A stretch of 64,000 nt of DNA from Lewinellaceae bacterium (GCA_963747415.1 CAVVFF010000007.1:582207-646206), one strand, 5' to 3'; numbered from the stretch's first letter, positions 55,744-64,000 are shown. A program made the numbers and translations. Notes: a model not told the origin generated them from the sequence alone.

Positions 55744-56001
55744 TCGTCGGGCGGTGGTTTTTACCACTTCATTAAGTATTCCTGAGTGTCCATCGCAAGA
55801 GGGAAACGATAATACGCTTCAGCTTGAAGCACGCCCCTCGGAATAATGAAGATGGCCCAGGATTGTGTTAGGGCAACTCTATTGGTGCAATGACCGGCAT
55901 CATTACAGGCGTTACATAAGATTGTGCTGCTCCCGGCAGGTGATGCTCTTTCGGACCAACAATTTGTTGCTTATCTTGCGGCCCCGCTCAAAAACCCCGT
56001 A

Positions 56002-58317
56002 ATGCCCGATCCACAAACCTCCGCCTACCTCGATTCCCTGAACGACGTACAACGGCAGGCAGTGACTACGGTAGATGGGCCGGTATTAGTCGTGGCAGGT
56101 CCTGGATCTGGCAAAACAAGGGTACTTACCTACCGCATCGCTTACATTATCGAGCAGGGCACGGCTCCCTGGGAAATTTTGGCGCTTACGTTCACGAATA
56201 AGGCAGCCCGGGAGATGAAGGAGCGGATCGAAACCGTGGTAGGGAAACGGGCTAGCTATATCTGGGCGGGTACCTTTCACAGCCTGTTCGCCCGCATCTT
56301 GCGCGTAGAGGCGGAGCACATCGGCTACCCGAGCAACTTCACGATCTACGATACGGACGACACCAAGAGCTTGATTGGATCGATCATCCGGGAGATGCAC
56401 CTCGATAAGCAGATCTACCAGGCCAACGCCATTAAAAATCGCATCAGTTCCGCGAAGAGTAGTCTGATCACCCCGAAGCTCTACGAAAAGAACGAAGAGC
56501 TCCTGGCCCAGGATAAGATGGCCAATATGCCGCTGGTGTATAAGATCTACGCCGCTTACGTGGCCCGGTGCAAACAAGCCGGGGCCATGGACTTTGATGA
56601 CTTACTCTTTCGGCTGTACGAACTCCTCCAAAATCACCCCGAGGTGGTGAGCAAGTACCGGGAGAAATTCAAGTACGTGATGGTAGACGAGTTCCAGGAC
56701 ACGAATACGCTGCAGTACGCGATCATCAAGCGGCTGGTACAGTATCCGAACAGTCCGCGCAATATCTGCGTCGTGGGTGACGATGCCCAGTCAATCTATG
56801 CCTTCCGGGGAGCTACCATCCAAAATATCCTGGACTTTGAGAACGATTTCGGAAAGCACAATATCAAGGTGTTTAAACTCGAGCAGAACTACCGGTCCAC
56901 CGAAAACATCGTCAATACCGCCAATACCGTTATCAGCTATAATAAGCGGCAGATACAAAAGAAGATATGGAGCGATAAGGGGGTAGGGGACAAGATCCGC
57001 GTGATCAAAGCCGTCGACGATAACGAGGAGGGACGACGCGTCGCGGACACTATTCTCGAGCAGAAGAACCGTTACCACCTCCAGAACAGCGATATCGCCA
57101 TTCTCTATCGTACCAACTCGCAATCGAGGATCTTCGAGGAGTACCTTCGGCGTTTCAATATCCTTTACCGGGTCTATGGGGGATTGAGCTTTTACCAGCG
57201 CAAGGAGGTGAAAGACCTGATTGCGTACTTGCGCATGGTCGTAAACCCTAACGATGAGGAAGCGTTTCGCCGATCCATCAATCACCCAAAGCGGGGGATC
57301 GGGGGCACCAGTTTCAGCAAGATTACCGATCTGGCGCGTCAAAGGAACCTGCCCCTCTTCGAAGCCCTGAAGCACGTTGCCCTCCCCAAGCGGACGAGGC
57401 ATGCCGCCGATGGCTACATCCACATCATCGAACAGGCCCAGGCGAAGGCGACTACGGCTAATGCCTATGAACTGGCTGACGCCATCGCCAAGGGATCGGG
57501 CCTTACCGATATGTTGCGAAACGACAAGTCGATCGAAGGCATGGGGCGCCTGGAAAACCATGAGGCCCTTTTGGACGGTATCAAATCATTTGTAGAAGAG
57601 GATACGCTCATCGATACCGATACCTTGCCGGATAAATCGCTGGCCACTTACTTACAGAATATCGCCTTGCTCACTGATTTCGACAGCAACGAAGAAAACC
57701 AGTCGGGTGATGTAGTGACCCTCATGTCCGTTCATGCTGCCAAAGGGCTGGAGTACAAGGCTATATTCGTCGTTGGCCTGGAAGAAAAGCTCTTTCCCAG
57801 CTGGATGAGCATGGATAGTATGGAAGGCTTGGACGAGGAACGCAGGTTGTTTTACGTAGCGATTACCCGGGCAGAACTGTACCTCACCCTGAGTTATGCG
57901 AACACCCGCTATCGGTATGGGAAAATGGTCATGAACGAACCCAGCAGGTTCCTTGCCGAGGTACCCGCGGATGCCGTTGAGAATACGTCCACGAACCGGC
58001 GCAGCGCCGACCACGAATACGATAAGGTGGCACAGCAACGGGAGCATCGAGCGCGGGTGACCGGCATCGCCCCGAGGACCCGAAGGGGCACGGCCCGTTT
58101 TGCCAGTCCGAAGGTTGATCCGGCCACATTTGTACCTAGCTCATCGGATGAGGTTCAGGAAGGACGCAAAGTGCTCCACCTGAAATTTGGCGAGGGGAAA
58201 GTCTTGAATGTCGATGGCGGAGTAGATAACCGTATCGCCACCATTCACTTTAGCGAACTTCCGCAGCCGGAAAAGCGGATCATGTTGAAGTTCGCGAAAT
58301 TACAAGTACTGGACTGA
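56002..58317 (+). CDS. uvrD: UvrD/PcrA ATP-dependent DNA helicase
   Basis: AGPGSGKT, TFTNKAAREM, VDEFQD, VGDDAQSIY, LEQNYRS, HAAKGLEY, EERRLFYVAITRA. Confidence 0.95.
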   Translation: MPDPQTSAYLDSLNDVQRQAVTTVDGPVLVVAGPGSGKTRVLTYRIAYIIEQGTAPWEILALTFTNKAAREMKERIETVVGKRASYIWAGTFHSLFARILRVEAEHIGYPSNFTIYDTDDTKSLIGSIIREMHLDKQIYQANAIKNRISSAKSSLITPKLYEKNEELLAQDKMANMPLVYKIYAAYVARCKQAGAMDFDDLLFRLYELLQNHPEVVSKYREKFKYVMVDEFQDTNTLQYAIIKRLVQYPNSPRNICVVGDDAQSIYAFRGATIQNILDFENDFGKHNIKVFKLEQNYRSTENIVNTANTVISYNKRQIQKKIWSDKGVGDKIRVIKAVDDNEEGRRVADTILEQKNRYHLQNSDIAILYRTNSQSRIFEEYLRRFNILYRVYGGLSFYQRKEVKDLIAYLRMVVNPNDEEAFRRSINHPKRGIGGTSFSKITDLARQRNLPLFEALKHVALPKRTRHAADGYIHIIEQAQAKATTANAYELADAIAKGSGLTDMLRNDKSIEGMGRLENHEALLDGIKSFVEEDTLIDTDTLPDKSLATYLQNIALLTDFDSNEENQSGDVVTLMSVHAAKGLEYKAIFVVGLEEKLFPSWMSMDSMEGLDEERRLFYVAITRAELYLTLSYANTRYRYGKMVMNEPSRFLAEVPADAVENTSTNRRSADHEYDKVAQQREHRARVTGIAPRTRRGTARFASPKVDPATFVPSSSDEVQEGRKVLHLKFGEGKVLNVDGGVDNRIATIHFSELPQPEKRIMLKFAKLQVLD

Positions 58318-58333: not shown

Positions 58334-59545
58334 TTACTGCATGTTGGTGAGGTTCCAAATGTAGACTGACAGGAAAGTGATCACCGCAAGGGCCAGTCCA
58401 CCGATGAAGGTATTGTAGCTGATGGTCAGCAGGAGGTACTTACGGTGGAGTACTTGTCCCAAATCGTAGAGATCCCGTGCCAGGTCATCGTATAGGCTGT
58501 CCTGATCCATTTTCATTTCGGACAGGTACTTGATGAAATCTGATTTTTCGATTTTTAGAAAGTTTCCGAAATAAAGCAGGCTGGCCTCTTTACTTTCCAG
58601 CAGGCTGGTCTTCTTGATCCGGTACTCCGTTACTTTCGGGCGGGCTGAAAAGACCGCGAAGACGACCGCCGTAAGGGAGCTCATCAGCAGGATAATGATT
58701 GGTGCCAGGAACTCCGGGCTCGTGAAGAACAGATCCTCGAAAAAGCTTAGACCCGCTCCCGAAACGGCAATCAAGATAGACAGGATGATCGTATTGATAG
58801 AGATCATCATGTTTGCTTTATCATCCGCGATACGACTTAGGTTGATGTGATTGCGGAAGGCCGTGCGGTACATAGTATCTATGCCCCGGCCGAAGTTCTT
58901 GCCGGTTTTGGCCTTCACTTCCTTTTGCTGGATCTTATAGTTGTTCCCCTGCTGTTTACTTACGTTTTTGCGGCGACGCTTGTCGAACTCCTGCTTGCCC
59001 TCATCGGTGAGGTAGTCAAAGTTTAGCAAGAAGGCCTGCATCTCGTGACCGAAAACCACCGGATCACCTTCTTTACCTTCGATAGCTTCCCGTTCAAGTT
59101 GCAGCAAATCGGACCTGCGGTCGTACCGCTTACGACCGAGCCAGTTCCATACCGCATCGTGTAGCAGCCGCACGGTGAGTTCGCTACTATCGGAGGCGTC
59201 AGGGACCGCGAGGATCCATTCAGCGGATTGACCGATGTCGAAATTGGCTTGCTTGCCGAATTTTCGAAGTTCCTCAGCGGACCGCTGGGTAAAGTTTTTT
59301 GGCCCCTGGATGTACCCTAAAGGATAAAAGATACCGGCGACTTGCAGTAATTCCTTAGTCCGCTCATCCAAGCCAGCCATATCCGCCAGCTCTTCGGCTT
59401 TATCTGCGATCTCCTCGGAGTAGGCATAATTATGAAATAGGTAGATCGGATCGAGTTCTTCGTTGAACCGACTACGTACGTACTGTTTCGCTTTGCCGAG
59501 CAAAGTTTCTTTTTCTGCGATTACGGCTTTCTCGTCCTTACTCAT
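58334..59545 (-). CDS. Degenerate HD domain fused to a Pycsar-type (DUF5706/PycTM) membrane effector domain
   Basis: N-term FHNYAYS..AGIFYPLGY (HD replaced by YP); C-term RNHINLSRIADDKANMMISIN, ARPK, LLYFGNF, LHRKYLLL with 3 TM segments. Confidence 0.8.
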   Translation of the reverse strand: MSKDEKAVIAEKETLLGKAKQYVRSRFNEELDPIYLFHNYAYSEEIADKAEELADMAGLDERTKELLQVAGIFYPLGYIQGPKNFTQRSAEELRKFGKQANFDIGQSAEWILAVPDASDSSELTVRLLHDAVWNWLGRKRYDRRSDLLQLEREAIEGKEGDPVVFGHEMQAFLLNFDYLTDEGKQEFDKRRRKNVSKQQGNNYKIQQKEVKAKTGKNFGRGIDTMYRTAFRNHINLSRIADDKANMMISINTIILSILIAVSGAGLSFFEDLFFTSPEFLAPIIILLMSSLTAVVFAVFSARPKVTEYRIKKTSLLESKEASLLYFGNFLKIEKSDFIKYLSEMKMDQDSLYDDLARDLYDLGQVLHRKYLLLTISYNTFIGGLALAVITFLSVYIWNLTNMQ

Positions 59546-60476
59546 TTGTCGCCGGTTGCTTCATTCTGGTGAGTGTGGCAATGATGCCATTTCCCGAGCC
59601 GTTTTCTTCGCTGCTAATGTACAAATCCCCCTGCGGAGAAAAAGTGATCCCCTCCGGCTGTCGGAAGGTGCCGGCTTCTAACAACTCCACGTGCTTTACT
59701 TCGCTGTCGCGGTCGATCACGACTAAGATCTTACCTATGGAGGAGAGAACGAAAATATCATGGGTAATGGGATCAACCGCAACACCACTTGGCTTTATAA
59801 CGTATTCGCGGTTTCCGCCGAAGACGATCTGGCCGATTTCTAATTCATCGATGTAATAGCTTGGTTGAGCTAACATCTTCATCGTTTCCAAGTCAAAGGT
59901 GTAAATGCCCCGCCGTTTGCTGTTCTCCTCGGTCGCATTTAATTGCTGCTCCTTGGGAGCGATCAAAAGGGTATTCGTCAATGAATCGTAACAAATGCCT
60001 TCGGTATCGTTGCGATAGCTGAAACGCGTTTCGATCTTCTGAGAGGATACTTCGGTAATGGTATCCAAATAGTTGAAATAGTGCAGGTCACCGTCGGCCT
60101 CCAGCACGAAAATTTGATTGCCCGCCCGGGCTACCCCCTCATAATCCAGATTGTCGCCGTAGCTGATCGTTTGCAGGACCTGACCCGTGATGGGGCTTAC
60201 CAAAAAAAGAATGCCATCTTCATCCTGGATGGCAAAAAGTTCGTCCGAATTAAAGCCGGGGCATAACCCACTTATCTCGTCGAGCTCATTGGAAAGTCGT
60301 GTTACCCGGTCCAGCCGGTCGAAATTGAAGGGAAAGAAATAGTCGTCGTCAACCGTAAAGCTCTCCATTTCGGGACGCTGGCTGACCGTGAAGGCAACGT
60401 AGGCGCCGCCAATGCACAGTACGACGAGCAAAATGATAACACTGATCAGGTTGGGTTTTTCCCAGATTCCGTTCAT
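59538..60476 (-). CDS. SdiA-regulated/YjiK-like beta-propeller with an N-terminal membrane anchor
   Basis: LDEISGL, DYEGVA, DTEGICYD, KPSGVAVDP, QPEGITFSPQGDLYISSE; overlaps the next gene by 8 nt. Confidence 0.8.
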   Translation of the reverse strand: MNGIWEKPNLISVIILLVVLCIGGAYVAFTVSQRPEMESFTVDDDYFFPFNFDRLDRVTRLSNELDEISGLCPGFNSDELFAIQDEDGILFLVSPITGQVLQTISYGDNLDYEGVARAGNQIFVLEADGDLHYFNYLDTITEVSSQKIETRFSYRNDTEGICYDSLTNTLLIAPKEQQLNATEENSKRRGIYTFDLETMKMLAQPSYYIDELEIGQIVFGGNREYVIKPSGVAVDPITHDIFVLSSIGKILVVIDRDSEVKHVELLEAGTFRQPEGITFSPQGDLYISSEENGSGNGIIATLTRMKQPATNE

Positions 60477-60489
60477 GGACGCGTTTGAT

Positions 60490-63400
60490 TTAGAAGGGGA
60501 AGCCCGCCGCAAAGTTCAAACGGCCGCTTTCATCGTCAAGAAAGTAGGTCAAACTCAGAATGGTGGCACCCAGGGGAGCAACCCACACCCCCCCGCCGTA
60601 GCCAAAGTGCCAGGTGCTGCTGTCCTCGCCGTTGAGCCAAACGCGCCCGTGGTCCAGCCCGAGGATGAATCCCCCCACAGTCGGCACCTCGCCCTTGCCA
60701 AATCCGAAGCCCATGAATCTAAGATCCACATTTTGGTAGACCATCTTGTGTCCCAGGTAGCGGTCTACCCGGGCGGCCCGGTAGTTGGACCGCCCGCCCA
60801 TGGAGGCCAGCTGGTAAAATTCCGGATCTCCACCGTTGTATTCGACCCCGAAGCGGGTGGCAAAGTTGATGGCTTTGGTAAGCATCCGGTAGAAACTCAG
60901 GTTTCCTCCCACTTTAGTAGCCTGCCGATCGGTATTGTCCAGATTAATGCTGTGACGTGCATATATGTCGTACTTCACGCCGTTGTCGGCGAGCAGGGGA
61001 ATGGCCAGGTTATTGGAACTCAGTTGCGCTTGCAGTCCAACAAAGGGCTTGGGTTCGAAGAAATCTAGGTATTCACCGGATTCCGGCAACTGGCTGATGA
61101 GTGTGAATTCGGCCGGGTCATCCAGGTCGTACCGGTGATAAAAAGGGCCGATGGAGAAACTCAGCCGGTTTCGTTGGCCGCGGAACCGTAGCATGGGGCT
61201 AACAAAAATCTCTTCTCGGCGTGCCCGATTGTACTCGAGAATTTGGTCTTCGTTGATCCCAAATTGGTCGACATTATCCTCGTCGGGTTGTCCCGGGTTG
61301 TCATTTCCAAGCCCGAAAAAGTTAGCTACGTAGCCCGGACTATAATAATGGGCATCTATGAGCAAATCCGACCTCCTTGCAAAGGCGTCGTTGATCTCCC
61401 CCTTATAGTAAACCTTCCAAAATTCATTGGTACTATAGCTACCTCCTATACTGTGGCGCTGTGAATAAGGATCCGGTTTCCATCCCATAATGGTGTGGGT
61501 CAACCCAGCTCCGAAGAAAAAGCCATCGTCTACGTTGAAGCCGATGGTAGGCGAAGGGATCGTATAGTCCGGATAGTACTCCTCGAAATCAAACGTATTC
61601 AGCTCGGGGAATTTATCCGTTCGCCGGTCCTTGAGCCGGTTCGTATTTCCCAATAATTCCATGCCCTCTTCTTCGTCGTATACCTTAGCTCCCAAGCGGC
61701 CTTCGGCGATCGCTTCATCTCCGTCGGTTCCCCCGATCAAACGAATATCCACGTCGCTGTCCGGTCCGCGTAAAACGAATTTGTCATCACCGTCCAGTCC
61801 GTACAGATTGACGTTTTGAGTTTCACTGGGTGTGAAAACGCGCGAGTAGTACAACTCATCGGCTTCCCCTTCGCTATCCGCATCGAAGACCTGAACCTGG
61901 AGGTTGCCGTTCTCGAGACCTTCCAGAATGAAATAGTCGTCGCTGTCGGTTCCCTGTATATTGACGCTTTCGGCAAGAACTTCGTAGTACTCCTCGGCAA
62001 ACCGGTCCAACTGGCTGAGGCGCGACTTTAGTTTTTCATCAATGTGTTCTTCCCGCAGGCTGTAGGAGAGTACTTCGGGCGGCATGCGTTGGAGGGCGGC
62101 ATCGATGTCCGCCGAAGTAAGGGTTTCCTGGATGTACCTAGCTTGCGCGATCATTTCTTCGCGGGTAATTTCATTGAGGAATACCCGGTCATTCCACTTG
62201 CCGTTCAGGGCCCGCCACCTGGCGTGGTCAAGATCGCCGGTGAAGGGGCGGAGTTTACGGGCTTCGGGCACGAAGACCCGGGCCAGTCCAAGTAGTCCGC
62301 CATCAAAATCGCTGAAGACCTGGTCGCGGTCACGTCCGACGGGAACGTAGCGGGTCCGTCCGTCTTCCTGCTCGAAAGAAGCCCAGCGCCACTGATCGCG
62401 GTGCCGATCCCAATCGCCGATGAGGAAATCGAAAAGCCTCGCCCGCGCAAAATTCTCCTGGTCGACATAATTTTTCCAGTCCTCCCAAAGCAGCTCCCGC
62501 ATATTGCTGTTACTGACGATGAGTTCACTGCCACCGAAAAAATCGGTATCACTCCAGTCTTCATCCGGCCGTTGTTCCAGCCAGTACATTTCTCCACCGA
62601 AATTGACATTGAAATCGCCTAGGGCAGGTTGTTTTGGCACGTAAAACAGATATGGATCGGCAGCCAGCAGTCCGAGCTTTTCCTGCAGCGGGGGCAGCGT
62701 AAGCGGAGAGTAGGGGTGTATAGCCGTAAACTGGTCCTTTGCCAGGTCAGCGGCAAAACTGTTTTCAAGCAAACTCGGGAGCAACTGCGCCGGGTTCTTG
62801 CGTACCGAACGCAATTGGTAGAGGTGGCCATCGGCACCTTCGGTGTGCAGACTCATGGTCGTCATACCGCCCCCCCGACGGTAGGGTTGGAGGCCACCGA
62901 AGATGGTATCAATCATGAGCACCGGTACCTCGACGGGTATATAATAAAGCGGACGGTAGTGCCTGCCGAAGGTGGATTCGTAAGTGGAATTTTTATTGGC
63001 GGGATCTCCGGCGTAAATGGCCGTGCGAACGGTATCATCGTTCACGACTTCGGTGGGTACCGGATCGATGCCAACGTCCTGTGGTTCGAAGCGATCTTCA
63101 ATAATCCGACGGTAGAATGTGCGTTCCTGATTGCCTTCTTCGTCTACGGTATAGAAACCGACGTAGACGGATCCGTCTTCGTAAAAATCCAGTTTGCTGT
63201 AGCCGATTGCTCCCTGGACAAAATTGGCATCGTTTCCACCGATCCCCGGTCCGCGTACACTGCCGGAGCCTGCGACGATATTTACGTATTCGTCCTCGTG
63301 ATTAAGCATCATGATGTGTTCGTGAGCGGAAACGAATATCACGTTGGTTTCGTCGTCGATACCCGCCTCAACCTTGCGCACGTACTCCTGGTAACGAAGG

Positions 63401-63999
63401 CTGTTGATATCCTGCGCTCCGCCGCCCACACCCTGAATCAAACGGAAAATAGTGCCTACGATCGGCAGTGGAACGTATGCCCCCGGAATGAGGTCCGTCA
63501 ACGGAAATAGGTGCTGCTTCAGGCTGAATTGGCCACCCCGGTTACCGTTGGCCTGTAGGGGATGATGCATCATAACGACCTTAACCTGATCCCGGTAGCC
63601 TTTGATCTCATCGGCCAGGGCAAAGGTCATCGCATCGCGGTTGGTATAATCACAGCCCTCACTAACCTCCTCATCACGGTCCCAATCGGCCAGATACCAG
63701 GCGGTATTCACGCCGATAAGTCCGACCCGATCGAGCAACTCTTCGTCGTCGGGACCAGAGCAGGCATTGTTTGGCATGAAGCGGACTTCCTTTTCGCTGT
63801 TATCTTCAACGTATTCCTCCAGGCGGTCGAGGCGGCTAAACTGACCGCTTCGGGCGATCTCGTTTTCTCCCGGGGTGTAATAGATGGCTCCGGGCACACG
63901 CTGGAAGCGCTTGATCAATTCGTCTAGAAAAGCCTGGTCGTCGTCATCCGGATTCTTTTCCCATCCTTCTTTGCCAACGATGTCGCCCAGCAGCAGCAA
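60490..63999 (-). CDS. Metallophosphoesterase-like + atypical kinase-like + Omp85/BamA-type barrel fusion (5' end outside window)
   Basis: GD..GENE..MHHP..SAHEH phosphoesterase; GGGMTT..DWDRHRDQW..RDRD kinase-like; GxDGDD repeats; beta-barrel ending AAGFPF. Confidence 0.85.
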   Translation of the reverse strand: MLLLGDIVGKEGWEKNPDDDDQAFLDELIKRFQRVPGAIYYTPGENEIARSGQFSRLDRLEEYVEDNSEKEVRFMPNNACSGPDDEELLDRVGLIGVNTAWYLADWDRDEEVSEGCDYTNRDAMTFALADEIKGYRDQVKVVMMHHPLQANGNRGGQFSLKQHLFPLTDLIPGAYVPLPIVGTIFRLIQGVGGGAQDINSLRYQEYVRKVEAGIDDETNVIFVSAHEHIMMLNHEDEYVNIVAGSGSVRGPGIGGNDANFVQGAIGYSKLDFYEDGSVYVGFYTVDEEGNQERTFYRRIIEDRFEPQDVGIDPVPTEVVNDDTVRTAIYAGDPANKNSTYESTFGRHYRPLYYIPVEVPVLMIDTIFGGLQPYRRGGGMTTMSLHTEGADGHLYQLRSVRKNPAQLLPSLLENSFAADLAKDQFTAIHPYSPLTLPPLQEKLGLLAADPYLFYVPKQPALGDFNVNFGGEMYWLEQRPDEDWSDTDFFGGSELIVSNSNMRELLWEDWKNYVDQENFARARLFDFLIGDWDRHRDQWRWASFEQEDGRTRYVPVGRDRDQVFSDFDGGLLGLARVFVPEARKLRPFTGDLDHARWRALNGKWNDRVFLNEITREEMIAQARYIQETLTSADIDAALQRMPPEVLSYSLREEHIDEKLKSRLSQLDRFAEEYYEVLAESVNIQGTDSDDYFILEGLENGNLQVQVFDADSEGEADELYYSRVFTPSETQNVNLYGLDGDDKFVLRGPDSDVDIRLIGGTDGDEAIAEGRLGAKVYDEEEGMELLGNTNRLKDRRTDKFPELNTFDFEEYYPDYTIPSPTIGFNVDDGFFFGAGLTHTIMGWKPDPYSQRHSIGGSYSTNEFWKVYYKGEINDAFARRSDLLIDAHYYSPGYVANFFGLGNDNPGQPDEDNVDQFGINEDQILEYNRARREEIFVSPMLRFRGQRNRLSFSIGPFYHRYDLDDPAEFTLISQLPESGEYLDFFEPKPFVGLQAQLSSNNLAIPLLADNGVKYDIYARHSINLDNTDRQATKVGGNLSFYRMLTKAINFATRFGVEYNGGDPEFYQLASMGGRSNYRAARVDRYLGHKMVYQNVDLRFMGFGFGKGEVPTVGGFILGLDHGRVWLNGEDSSTWHFGYGGGVWVAPLGATILSLTYFLDDESGRLNFAAGFPF

Positions 64000-64000
64000 C

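Follow-up and report, generated by a model that had tools for sequence, protein, structure and literature searches.

The 64,000-nt stretch of Lewinellaceae DNA analysed here (the window) ends in three co-directional genes on the minus strand, A, B and C (Table 1). Their tight coupling, with a 13-nt gap between the stop codon of A and the ATG of B (atcaaacgcgtcc) and an 8-nt overlap between the stop of B and the start of C (ATGAGTAA), was part of the original prediction and is confirmed by the ORF listing and by the sequence. For B the ORF list also contains an alternative TTG start at 60512, from which the gene would overlap A. The first 80 codons of A (240 nt) lie outside the window, past its edge at 64000, and the full-length protein (1249 aa) was taken from the full locus (L001:5307-9056). 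There A is the first gene of the operon, preceded at a distance of 205 nt by a divergent PIG-L gene, and the flanks are syntenic and of housekeeping character (DHQ synthase, PIG-L, UvrD, Fe-S assembly).

Table 1. Genes, domains and motifs of the A-B-C locus (window positions; residues of A refer to the full-length protein)
Feature	Position	Strand	Residues	Basis or remark
Gene A, Omp85-family outer-membrane lipoprotein, 'Metallo' class	60490..64000	(-)		in-window part: 3' 1169 codons and stop
A, purple-acid-phosphatase-like metallophosphoesterase domain	63070..64000	(-)	~45-390	N-terminus cut by window edge
A, GENE motif	63859-63870	(-)		
A, protein-kinase-like domain	61969..63042	(-)	~400-757	AF2 and Foldseek
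A, DRHRDQ motif	62392-62409	(-)		catalytic-loop-like
A, all-beta linker domain	61615..61968	(-)	~758-875	DSSP of AF2 model
A, C-terminal Omp85/ShlB-type beta-barrel	60493..61602	(-)		NF047779 and BamA matches
Gene B, YjiK/SdiA-regulated-type beta-propeller	59538..60476	(-)	312 aa	from ATG
B, N-terminal hydrophobic helix (TM anchor)	60387-60449	(-)	10-30	
B, propeller	59601-60281	(-)	66-292	
Gene C, HD-fold and 3-TM PycTM-like inner-membrane protein	58334..59545	(-)	403 aa	
C, HD-fold domain	58904..59503	(-)	15-214	Foldseek, alignments, motif census
C, FYPLGY motif	59312-59329	(-)		
C, juxtamembrane helix and three TM helices	58337..58903	(-)	215-403	
C, PycTM match	58403-58717	(-)	277-381	PF18967

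The protein encoded by A begins with a lipoprotein-type signal, whose lipobox cysteine (Cys21) is invariant across the family. The domain that follows is weakly recognised by the Metallophos profile PF00149 (21.4 bits at a cut-off of 21.5, E=3.8e-4), which is present in 10 of 14 A-family members; the A-family profile also matches purple acid phosphatases and GAP50 in the PDB, and homologues of A carry PF00149, PF01103 or PF03865 and are named metallophosphoesterase or calcineurin-like phosphoesterase. Active metallophosphoesterases are recognised by five metal-binding and catalytic motifs (D-x-H/G, GD-x-x-Y/D, GNH[DE], H and GHxH), and our motif census did not find the complete set in A: in this protein the motifs read GDLG, GDIVG, GENE, HH and AHEH, and in relatives outside the clade GDAG, GDNIY, GNHD, HH and GHEH. 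Judging from these residues, the catalytic motifs of the phosphoesterase are decayed in the Lewinellaceae lineage; the domain is still 70% identical within the clade, and in Fulvivirga-type A it is absent altogether.

For the domain between the phosphoesterase and the linker, sequence searches of Pfam, NCBIfam and the PDB gave no match to a kinase family. Its AF2 model (pLDDT 86, pTM 0.88) finds as best Foldseek matches CtkA, HipA, HipT, Rio2, Fam20C and PI4K/PI3K, with probabilities of 0.98-1.0 and E ~5e-5 for CtkA (3akl), HipA (3tpt) and HipT (7ab3) and with modest target-normalised TM-scores (0.51 at best). The candidate catalytic motifs comprise a GGG loop, Lys481, the catalytic-loop-like DRHRDQ and RDRDQ, and the GGG/K/DRHxDQ/DRDQ set is invariant in 121 of 123 homologues, so that the residues of the putative nucleotide site and catalytic loop hardly vary. 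A bilobal protein-kinase-like fold of the HipA/CtkA type is supported by the model, and the term 'kinase' by this predicted fold. Like HipA, HipT and CtkA, its best structural matches, the domain has a DRHxxQ loop-like motif and a second acidic motif; unlike them, it belongs to no detectable sequence family, has Gln in place of Asn in the loop and is part of an outer-membrane lipoprotein, outside the cytoplasm and with no toxin-antitoxin context.

At the C-terminus, the barrel is recognised by NF047779 (Omp85_fam, E=3.9e-9) and by the match of the A-family profile to BamA (4k3c, E=1.3e-7); PF03865 is found in nine and PF01103 in five of the 14 family members. The linker in front of it, which occupies the usual POTRA position of Omp85 proteins, is modelled as a beta-sandwich with 11 short strands and zero helices; it contains repeats of the G-G-x-D-x-D type (YGLDGDDKF, IGGTDGDE), and D819, F821, G836, G837 and D841 are invariant. 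Profile searches, including those of the 14 family members, found neither a patatin nor a POTRA domain in A. The PF00149 and Omp85/BamA matches, together with the kinase-like fold, bear out the prediction of a Metallo-Omp85 protein with a kinase-like domain. The 'Metallo' subfamily, defined by an N-terminal PF00149 domain and an Omp85-type barrel, is functionally uncharacterised (Heinz and Lithgow 2014, PMC4104836), and A shares both elements, its barrel being of the Omp85/TpsB type. In that paper PF00149 was called a metalloprotease and the family was thought to be confined to genus level, whereas the kinase-like family to which A belongs is wide, with 3541 clusters at 50% identity from several Bacteroidota classes; nor are the kinase-like domain, the lipoprotein signal and the conserved partners of A described there (PMC4104836).

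The barrel invites a comparison with Omp85-based secretion and assembly devices such as the type Vd autotransporter PlpD or the TAM, in which case A would export its own enzyme domains to the cell surface or assemble components of the envelope, with B and C as its inner-membrane or periplasmic partners in the manner of TamB. In TamA-TamB, an Omp85 protein is paired in one operon with an inner-membrane-anchored periplasmic protein, an arrangement that is mirrored here by the genetic linkage of A to one or more inner-membrane-anchored, periplasm-facing partners. PlpD is a precedent for an enzyme domain fused N-terminally to an Omp85 barrel (16-stranded in PlpD), and both topologies have been raised for the 'Metallo' class (Heinz and Lithgow, PMC4104836). 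In A, however, the passenger is a phosphoesterase and a kinase-like domain rather than a patatin, enzyme domains take the place of the POTRAs, none of which was detected, with an all-beta linker before the barrel, and the invariant N-terminal lipidation site argues against release of the passenger. The dedicated partner genes encode a YjiK-type propeller and an HD-PycTM protein instead of an AsmA-like TamB, of which the module has no counterpart, and such a device accounts for neither the kinase-like domain nor the HD-PycTM partner. We therefore consider this reading quite unlikely.

Gene B is matched by the SdiA-regulated family (PF06977, 52.3 bits at a cut-off of 21, E=5.7e-14), with a weak additional Phytase-like/NHL signal. 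Together with the single N-terminal hydrophobic helix, this match bears out the anchored SdiA/YjiK propeller of the original prediction, and B is predicted to be an inner-membrane-anchored periplasmic protein of the YjiK type. In Flavobacterium A is followed by a lipoprotein form (c4) that is remotely homologous to B (hhalign 97%, E=8e-11) and gives a faint PF06977 signal.

Gene C was expected to encode a PycTM-like inner-membrane protein with three TM helices and a cytoplasmic HD-like domain, and this is what the profile and topology analyses indicate. Three hydrophobic helices (residues 246-269, 279-301 and 373-397) show an N-in charge bias; the membrane domain belongs to PF18967 (82.9 bits at a cut-off of 27.2, E=2.5e-23) and matches the PADLOC models for both PycTM (E=2.6e-16) and the CBASS 2TM effector (2.1e-14). 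The juxtamembrane and TM region is the most conserved part of C, with identities within the clade of 95% (juxtamembrane) and 83% (TM) compared with 59% in the HD-fold domain; confidence in the model is low over its TM part (pLDDT 50-80). The HD fold, modelled with pLDDT >90, is matched in Foldseek by YpgQ, 2pq7, Lin1889, HD-GYP, PgpH and PDE4/5. It lacks the complete H...HD...D metal-ligand set of HD-superfamily phosphohydrolases: HNxxH is replaced by HNYAY and the HD dyad by YP (in FYPLGY), H38 and D130 are kept, and distant relatives retain HNxxH, HD and D. The designation 'dead HD' is thus supported. In combining a membrane domain with a cytoplasmic HD fold, C is similar to PgpH (a 7TM receptor with an HD c-di-AMP phosphodiesterase) and HD-GYP proteins, but its domain order is reversed, its TM helices are three and of the PycTM type, and its HD dyad is lost in this lineage; the closest fold match is YpgQ rather than PgpH.

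The three genes are found together in other genomes far beyond chance, in no fewer than six different gene orders; the lack of co-occurrence that would have refuted the original prediction is not seen. The order A-B-C is present in every Lewinellaceae locus with enough flanking sequence, down to 45-51% identity, except one (L035), which carries A-C only, while Fulvivirga and Roseivirgaceae have the order C-A. In a distant set of 80 metagenome loci, for which only the A family served as query and whose identity to A is 29-33%, C is present in 56, in 50 of which it is divergent from A with a spacing of mostly 42-130 bp; where both flanks of A extend to 1.5 kb or more, C is missing from just 11 loci, and a B-type propeller (including c4) adjoins A in 43 of the 80. 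B adjoins A or C in 43 loci of the C set and in 38 of the A set. In 41 loci the gene convergent with C encodes a GAF-domain protein, which gives the neighbourhood a nucleotide theme. Among 81 C-centred loci, 30 have neither A nor B within 10 kb, and in Fulvivirga the HD dyad of C is intact though A has no phosphoesterase domain; A, B and C are therefore not strictly interdependent. We conclude with high confidence that A-B-C is a genuine conserved three-component module.

The homology of the C membrane domain to PycTM and the CBASS 2TM effector models could point to abortive infection of the Pycsar/CBASS kind, in which an unlinked or unrecognised generator would produce a nucleotide that activates a membrane-disrupting C, with A and B as accessory sensors on the cell surface; like PycTM, C may be a ligand-controlled membrane module. 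The neighbourhood speaks against this. Pfam searches of the genes within 10 kb of the operon found no cyclase family, the operon's unannotated neighbours gave no PADLOC match, and no cyclase recurs in 161 related loci; inspection of the sequence past nt 64000 likewise revealed no PycC cyclase upstream of A that would make the locus an ordinary Pycsar system. A DUF2652 gene, whose motifs (PDITGFT...EIEGDA) we take to resemble those of class III cyclases, adjoins C or A in 5 of the 161 loci and could be cited in favour of the defence explanation, but it is rare, and searches of Pfam and the PDB did not match it to any cyclase. Unlike PycTM, C has no PycC partner and carries a fused N-terminal HD fold of ~215 residues, and its conserved partners are an outer-membrane enzyme-barrel and a propeller rather than a nucleotide synthase. 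Defence islands are patchy and fast-evolving. Instead of the patchy, island-like distribution expected of Pycsar, we find the opposite: the module lies outside defence islands and is inherited vertically within regions syntenic with housekeeping genes, and its sequence is highly conserved (~90% within Flavobacterium, 65-85% in Lewinellaceae); for C homologues, which are ~90% identical across Flavobacterium, the search gave at least 7968 matches. The defence flavour of the original prediction is therefore not borne out, the module is very probably not a Pycsar-type defence system, and the abortive-infection explanation is highly improbable.

The suspected link to polyphosphate genes fared no better: neither ppk nor ppx lies within 10 kb, and none of pst, pho, ppk and ppx appears in the annotated recurrent neighbour clusters. 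The latter result also counts against the view that the three proteins form a phosphate-scavenging set linked by shared regulation only and physically uncoupled, with A as an acid phosphatase of the periplasm or surface, B as a phytase-like propeller hydrolase and C as a phosphohydrolase of the cytoplasm. This view would agree with the purple-acid-phosphatase-like domain of A, the Phytase-like/NHL signal of B, the HD phosphohydrolase fold of C and the very short divergent control region that A and C usually have in common. Yet in Lewinellaceae the genes are still strongly conserved although the phosphatase and HD catalytic motifs are gone, Fulvivirga-type A does without the phosphatase domain, and the most constrained parts, the kinase-like site and the C membrane domain, would be left unexplained, which makes scavenging a rather improbable explanation.

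The decay of the two hydrolase centres is correlated. In paired loci, GNHD in A accompanies HD in C in 50 of 50 cases, and a degenerate A motif accompanies YP, FP, LP or LD in C in 35 of 35, with no exceptions. This co-variation hints at coupling, but it is statistically weak, since both losses probably go back to one and the same event in the evolution of a single clade.

A literature search found no paper describing the A-B-C module and no described function for it, and the gene set appears to be a housekeeping system of the envelope that is as yet undescribed. As the best overall explanation we tentatively favour a vertically inherited, Bacteroidota-wide envelope module over a Pycsar locus. 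It probably acts as a relay for phosphoryl transfer or signalling across the envelope, by a mechanism that is speculative. From topology and gene linkage only, we infer a relay across three compartments; the physical or functional coupling of A, B and C, the gating and the kind of substrate are likewise proposals. In such a relay, C would serve as a membrane gate or transducer under ligand control: its HD domain would bind a nucleotide or other phospho-ligand, which in most lineages may also be hydrolysed there, and so set the state of the membrane domain, through which either a signal or a phosphoryl donor would reach the periplasm. There, A could both phosphorylate a substrate in the envelope, by its kinase-like domain, and dephosphorylate it, by its phosphoesterase domain, with the propeller B as a binding or adaptor partner. 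In Lewinellaceae, the HD centre of C and the phosphoesterase centre of A would have lost their catalytic residues together, both domains persisting as conserved non-catalytic ones next to an intact kinase-like site and an intact membrane domain. The N-terminal domains of A most likely face the periplasm, but could instead be surface-exposed. Periplasmic proteins are not known to have ATP available to them, so that a kinase in this compartment would have to be explained specially, and gating combined with periplasmic phosphorylation is, as a specific mechanism, unlikely. Somewhat less likely still is a complete trans-envelope phosphorylation machine, in which a PycTM-like conduit in the inner membrane, controlled by its HD-fold nucleotide sensor, would provide a kinase-like enzyme, kept beneath the outer membrane by the Omp85 barrel, with a signal or a phosphoryl donor; the PycTM-like protein would then be the housekeeping relative from which the Pycsar and CBASS membrane effectors were recruited.

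The module spans thousands of Bacteroidota genomes, including those of Flavobacterium, Lewinella and Fulvivirga, and ties an uncharacterised class of Omp85 proteins to specific inner-membrane partners. It also poses a puzzle, namely a kinase-like active site that is well conserved although the compartment in which it probably lies is believed to lack ATP. The PycTM-type membrane domain, so far known from effectors of phage defence alone, has a large vertically inherited housekeeping branch as well, which bears on the origin of defence effectors, and the current database name of C-type proteins, 'Pycsar system effector family protein', is probably misleading. If the phosphorylation-machine reading is true, it would mean regulated phosphorylation in the Bacteroidota periplasm. 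The module makes Bacteroidota envelope biology directly testable in the genetically tractable Flavobacterium.

The three genes studied here encode A (an Omp85 "Metallo" lipoprotein with phosphoesterase-like and kinase-like domains), B (a YjiK-type propeller) and C (a protein with an HD fold and a PycTM-like region of three transmembrane (TM) segments). As the original prediction stated, they are co-directional and closely packed: the ORF listing and direct reading of the sequence give 13 nt between the stop codon of A and the ATG of B, and an overlap of 8 nt (ATGAGTAA) between B and C. The same locus (L001) was recovered through an exact match to C on a 660-kb metagenome contig, where full-length A has 1249 aa (its first 80 codons are absent from the window) and differs from the window version at one residue. 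Beyond nt 64000, L001 completes A and continues through a 205-nt spacer into a divergent PIG-L-family gene; no PycC cyclase was found upstream. On the other side, 16 nt separate the stop codons of C and of a UvrD-type helicase gene, which leaves no space for separate terminators. The remaining genes within 10 kb are of housekeeping types (DHQ synthase, HSP20, Fe-S assembly, SusC/D-like). Rfam gave no match anywhere in the locus or in the stretch 5' of A. Among sequencing runs, the locus sequence is present only in soil-metagenome DNA contigs. By the names of its homologs, the source organism belongs to Lewinella/Neolewinella (Lewinellaceae, Bacteroidota).

Coordinates of the module genes, motifs and recurrent neighbours (L followed by a number denotes a compared locus; L164 is an annotated Flavobacterium-type locus, from Flavobacterium sp. 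9)
Feature	Sequence	Position	Strand	Basis or remark
Gene A	window	60490-63999	-	ORF listing; runs beyond window edge
Gene B	window	59538-60476	-	ORF listing; counted from ATG
Gene C	window	58334-59545	-	ORF listing
UvrD-type helicase gene, 797 aa	window	55924-58317	+	3' of C, convergent with it
C, lost HD dyad, FYPLGY	window	59312-59329	-	census of 130 C homologues
A, decayed phosphoesterase motif, GENE	window	63859-63870	-	census of 123 A homologues
DUF2652 (PF10851) gene	L067	9243-9905		directly beside C or A (5 of 161 loci)
DUF2652 (PF10851) gene	L080	9313-9948		as above
DUF2652 (PF10851) gene	L112	11710-12309		as above
DUF2652 (PF10851) gene	L126	5067-5717		as above
DUF2652 (PF10851) gene	L131	2900-3550		as above
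GAF-protein gene	L094	4231-6597		convergent with C
GAF-protein gene	L164	11443-13812		convergent with C
Gene for 350-aa protein	L164	4033-5085		precedes propeller gene, same orientation
A-C spacer, 26 bp	L164	9975-10000		between divergent genes

Relatives of the module were collected in two independent searches. The one centred on C gave 216 relatives (one genome per species), and in the best 80 of these 216 the order A-B-C is constant in all Lewinellaceae loci with enough upstream sequence, down to 45–51% identity, the sole exception being L035, which has A and C only. In Fulvivirga and Roseivirgaceae the order is C then A, and A is often an 880-aa protein lacking the phosphoesterase domain; Flavilitoribacter-type loci read ECF sigma-B-C, and in Phaeodactylibacter-type loci an ECF sigma gene and an anti-sigma-like gene adjoin C. 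The search centred on A gave 553 relatives in metagenome contigs, of which the best 80 were used, all 29–33% identical to A. C is present in 56 of these 80 loci, in 50 of them divergently from A and mostly at a distance of 42–130 bp (tblastn), and is absent from only 11 loci in which A has flanks of 1.5 kb or more on each side. According to neighbour clustering, the commonest layout comprises a GAF-protein gene convergent with C, then A convergent with a gene (c4) for a 286-aa lipoprotein, which is a remote homolog of B (hhalign 97%, E=8e-11); independent support comes from a Flavobacterium chromosome, in whose precomputed Pfam annotation the gene in the c4 position carries a faint PF06977 match. 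A, C and a propeller occur together in 32/80 A-centred and 38/81 C-centred loci, many of the others being truncated contigs, and at least six gene orders preserve the set. Co-occurrence in other genomes is thus borne out from both directions: the three genes are tightly and anciently linked, their co-occurrence is far beyond chance and is a classic signature of functional linkage, and we hold it very likely that the module is real.

The divergent A-C spacer of Flavobacterium-type loci mostly measures 24–76 bp (crude ATG-based calls); besides the annotated L164 the set contains 39 other divergent C/A spacers, several of which include AT-rich palindromes such as CAAAATACAAAATTTTGGTA. These short spacers and palindromes suggest overlapping promoters that may be jointly controlled. 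In loci without A (Phaeodactylibacter-like and some Lewinellaceae) an ECF sigma gene lies beside C, among the genes after C in L050, L057 and L070 and in the order ECF sigma, B, C in L049 and L052; the sigma gene is followed by a gene whose product combines a TM segment at the N-terminus with an OMP_b-brl_2 domain. This arrangement hints that the module may be connected with the regulation of envelope stress.

Protein A is an outer-membrane barrel lipoprotein of the "Metallo" Omp85 class, which was named and left uncharacterised by Heinz and Lithgow (2014; PMC4104836), with no mention of a kinase-like domain. Its N-terminus is a lipoprotein-type signal (...LLTHC) with a cysteine invariant in the family, and its C-terminus is an Omp85/ShlB-type barrel. 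Residues ~45–390 give a weak Metallophos match, and a PDB search with a profile of 14 family members picks out purple acid phosphatases and GAP50; single-sequence PDB searches with A and C returned nothing useful. For residues ~400–757 no sequence match was found anywhere. The AlphaFold model of residues 396–900 is confident (pLDDT 86, pTM 0.88), and its closest PDB folds are atypical protein kinases: CtkA, HipA, HipT, Rio2, Fam20C and PI4K/PI3K. The likeness to HipA and CtkA concerns the fold only. Among A homologs, 121/123 share an invariant GGG loop, lysine, DRHxDQ loop and RDRDQ motif, and the family of the kinase-like module comprises 3541 clusters at 50% identity. Residues ~758–875 are modelled as an all-beta domain with GGxDxD-like repeats, in a pattern unlike POTRA. 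The whole set is like TAM only in joining an Omp85 protein to partners in the inner membrane. Secretion or assembly by a device of the type Vd/TAM kind seems to us an improbable explanation. The length distribution reveals two architectures, a full one of ~1240 aa and a shorter one of ~870 aa that starts straight at the kinase-like domain, which indicates that this domain and the barrel form the core and that the phosphoesterase domain is dispensable; short A proteins (~880 aa, without the phosphoesterase domain) are encoded in L058, L059, L068, L072, L074 and L075. That the genes are merely a co-regulated set for phosphate scavenging we consider improbable as well. A Riemerella metallophosphoesterase was rejected as a counterpart of A, being described as a T9SS-secreted enzyme without an Omp85 fusion.

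Protein B is a PF06977 (SdiA-regulated/YjiK) propeller with a periplasmic targeting signal. Its single N-terminal hydrophobic helix probably anchors it in the inner membrane, with the propeller on the periplasmic side. No NCBIfam model matches B or C, and we found no function for the YjiK family in the literature. Protein C is an inner-membrane protein with a cytoplasmic HD fold (residues 15–214 modelled with pLDDT >90; structural matches include YpgQ, 2pq7, Lin1889, HD-GYP, PgpH and PDE4/5), followed by three hydrophobic helices whose charge pattern points to an N-in orientation. This C-terminal part belongs to the Pfam PycTM family and also matches the PADLOC models of PycTM and of the CBASS 2TM effector. 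The Flavobacterium homologs of C carry PF01966 and PF18967 and are ~90% identical across the genus (at least 7968 matches).

The HD domain of C had been predicted to be dead, and indeed the HD fold is retained in the model, with YP in place of the dyad. In the alignment, distant relatives (Phaeodactylibacter, Fulvivirga, Flavobacterium) keep the canonical HNxxH...HD...D, and Lewinellaceae read HNxxY...YP...D. The phosphoesterase motifs of Lewinellaceae A have changed as well: GDNIY to GDI(T/V)G, GNHD to GENE and GHEH to (G/A)HEH. Among paired loci, GNHD in A is accompanied by HD in C in 50/50 cases and a degenerate A motif by YP, FP, LP or LD in 35/35. All degenerate cases appear within one clade, so that the co-variation amounts to about one evolutionary event, probably in the Lewinellaceae lineage, and is only a hint of coupling. 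Fulvivirga-type loci depart from the pattern, with an intact HD in C and an A without the phosphoesterase domain. Within the clade the decayed domains are still conserved (70% for the A phosphoesterase, 59% for the C HD fold), and the strongest constraint falls on the juxtamembrane (95%) and TM (83%) regions of C and the kinase-like domain of A (72%).

In 41/80 Flavobacterium-type loci a ~789-aa cytoplasmic GAF protein is encoded convergently with C. It has only weak GAF matches (residues ~310–385) and a highly conserved C-terminal half with no domain assigned. It could belong to the module as a fourth component; Lewinellaceae loci gave no homolog. The conserved motifs of the DUF2652 neighbours, [IV]PDI[ST]GFT and EIEGDA, bring to mind the motifs that bind metal in class III nucleotide cyclases; Pfam Guanylate_cyc did not match these proteins even at E=10, and neither did any PDB sequence. 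The 350-aa protein, without a Pfam match, occurs in L164 and seven other Flavobacterium-type loci; it was rejected as a relative of the kinase-like domain (hhalign probability 1.6%).

C shares its membrane domain, and may share its way of working, with the PycTM effector of Pycsar. The defining feature of Pycsar is a cyclase partner, whereas no nucleotide cyclase is encoded within 10 kb of the module. PADLOC gave no match for neighbours without a Pfam name. Housekeeping flank genes are common to Lewinellaceae loci, and GC content carries no island signal. The ~90% identity of C across Flavobacterium, the 3541-cluster family, the common flanks, the lack of a GC island and the lack of a cyclase or defence model speak for a housekeeping role under vertical inheritance and argue strongly against an ordinary Pycsar locus or a mobile defence island. 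We regard it as likely that the module is not a defence system, and defence relying on an unlinked signal generator as very unlikely. The suggested link to polyphosphate genes found no support, with no ppk or ppx within 10 kb and none among the annotated recurrent neighbour clusters.

The N-terminal domains of A presumably face the periplasm, given the usual Omp85 topology and the lack, after the lipobox, of the acidic signal that directs Bacteroidota lipoproteins to the cell surface. With this topology, A, B and C would occupy three layers of the envelope and act together. As our preferred, though tentative and rather speculative, mechanism, C could be a ligand-controlled gate or transducer, its state set by nucleotide binding at the HD fold (accompanied by hydrolysis in most lineages), that would hand a phosphoryl donor or signal to the periplasm, where an envelope substrate would be phosphorylated by the kinase-like domain of A and dephosphorylated by its phosphoesterase domain, B serving as an adaptor. 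Such a mechanism would account for three things: that a kinase-like site, in a compartment poor in ATP, is always linked to an inner-membrane protein of pore type; that both hydrolase centres could be lost jointly with the kinase-like site and the membrane domain still kept; and that cNMP-type domains (GAF) recur nearby. The probability not taken up by this mechanism and the three rivals goes to something else.

In the literature, which was incompletely covered, we found neither the module nor the HD-PycTM architecture nor the kinase-like domain described, and this is absence of evidence. The original interpretation holds in part: the genes form a conserved, undescribed module that spans the envelope, which is likely not a defence locus of Pycsar type and shows no tie to polyphosphate. 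The system matches no described kind, with all its domains coming from known superfamilies, and the label "Pycsar system effector family protein" that databases give to C homologs is probably misleading.
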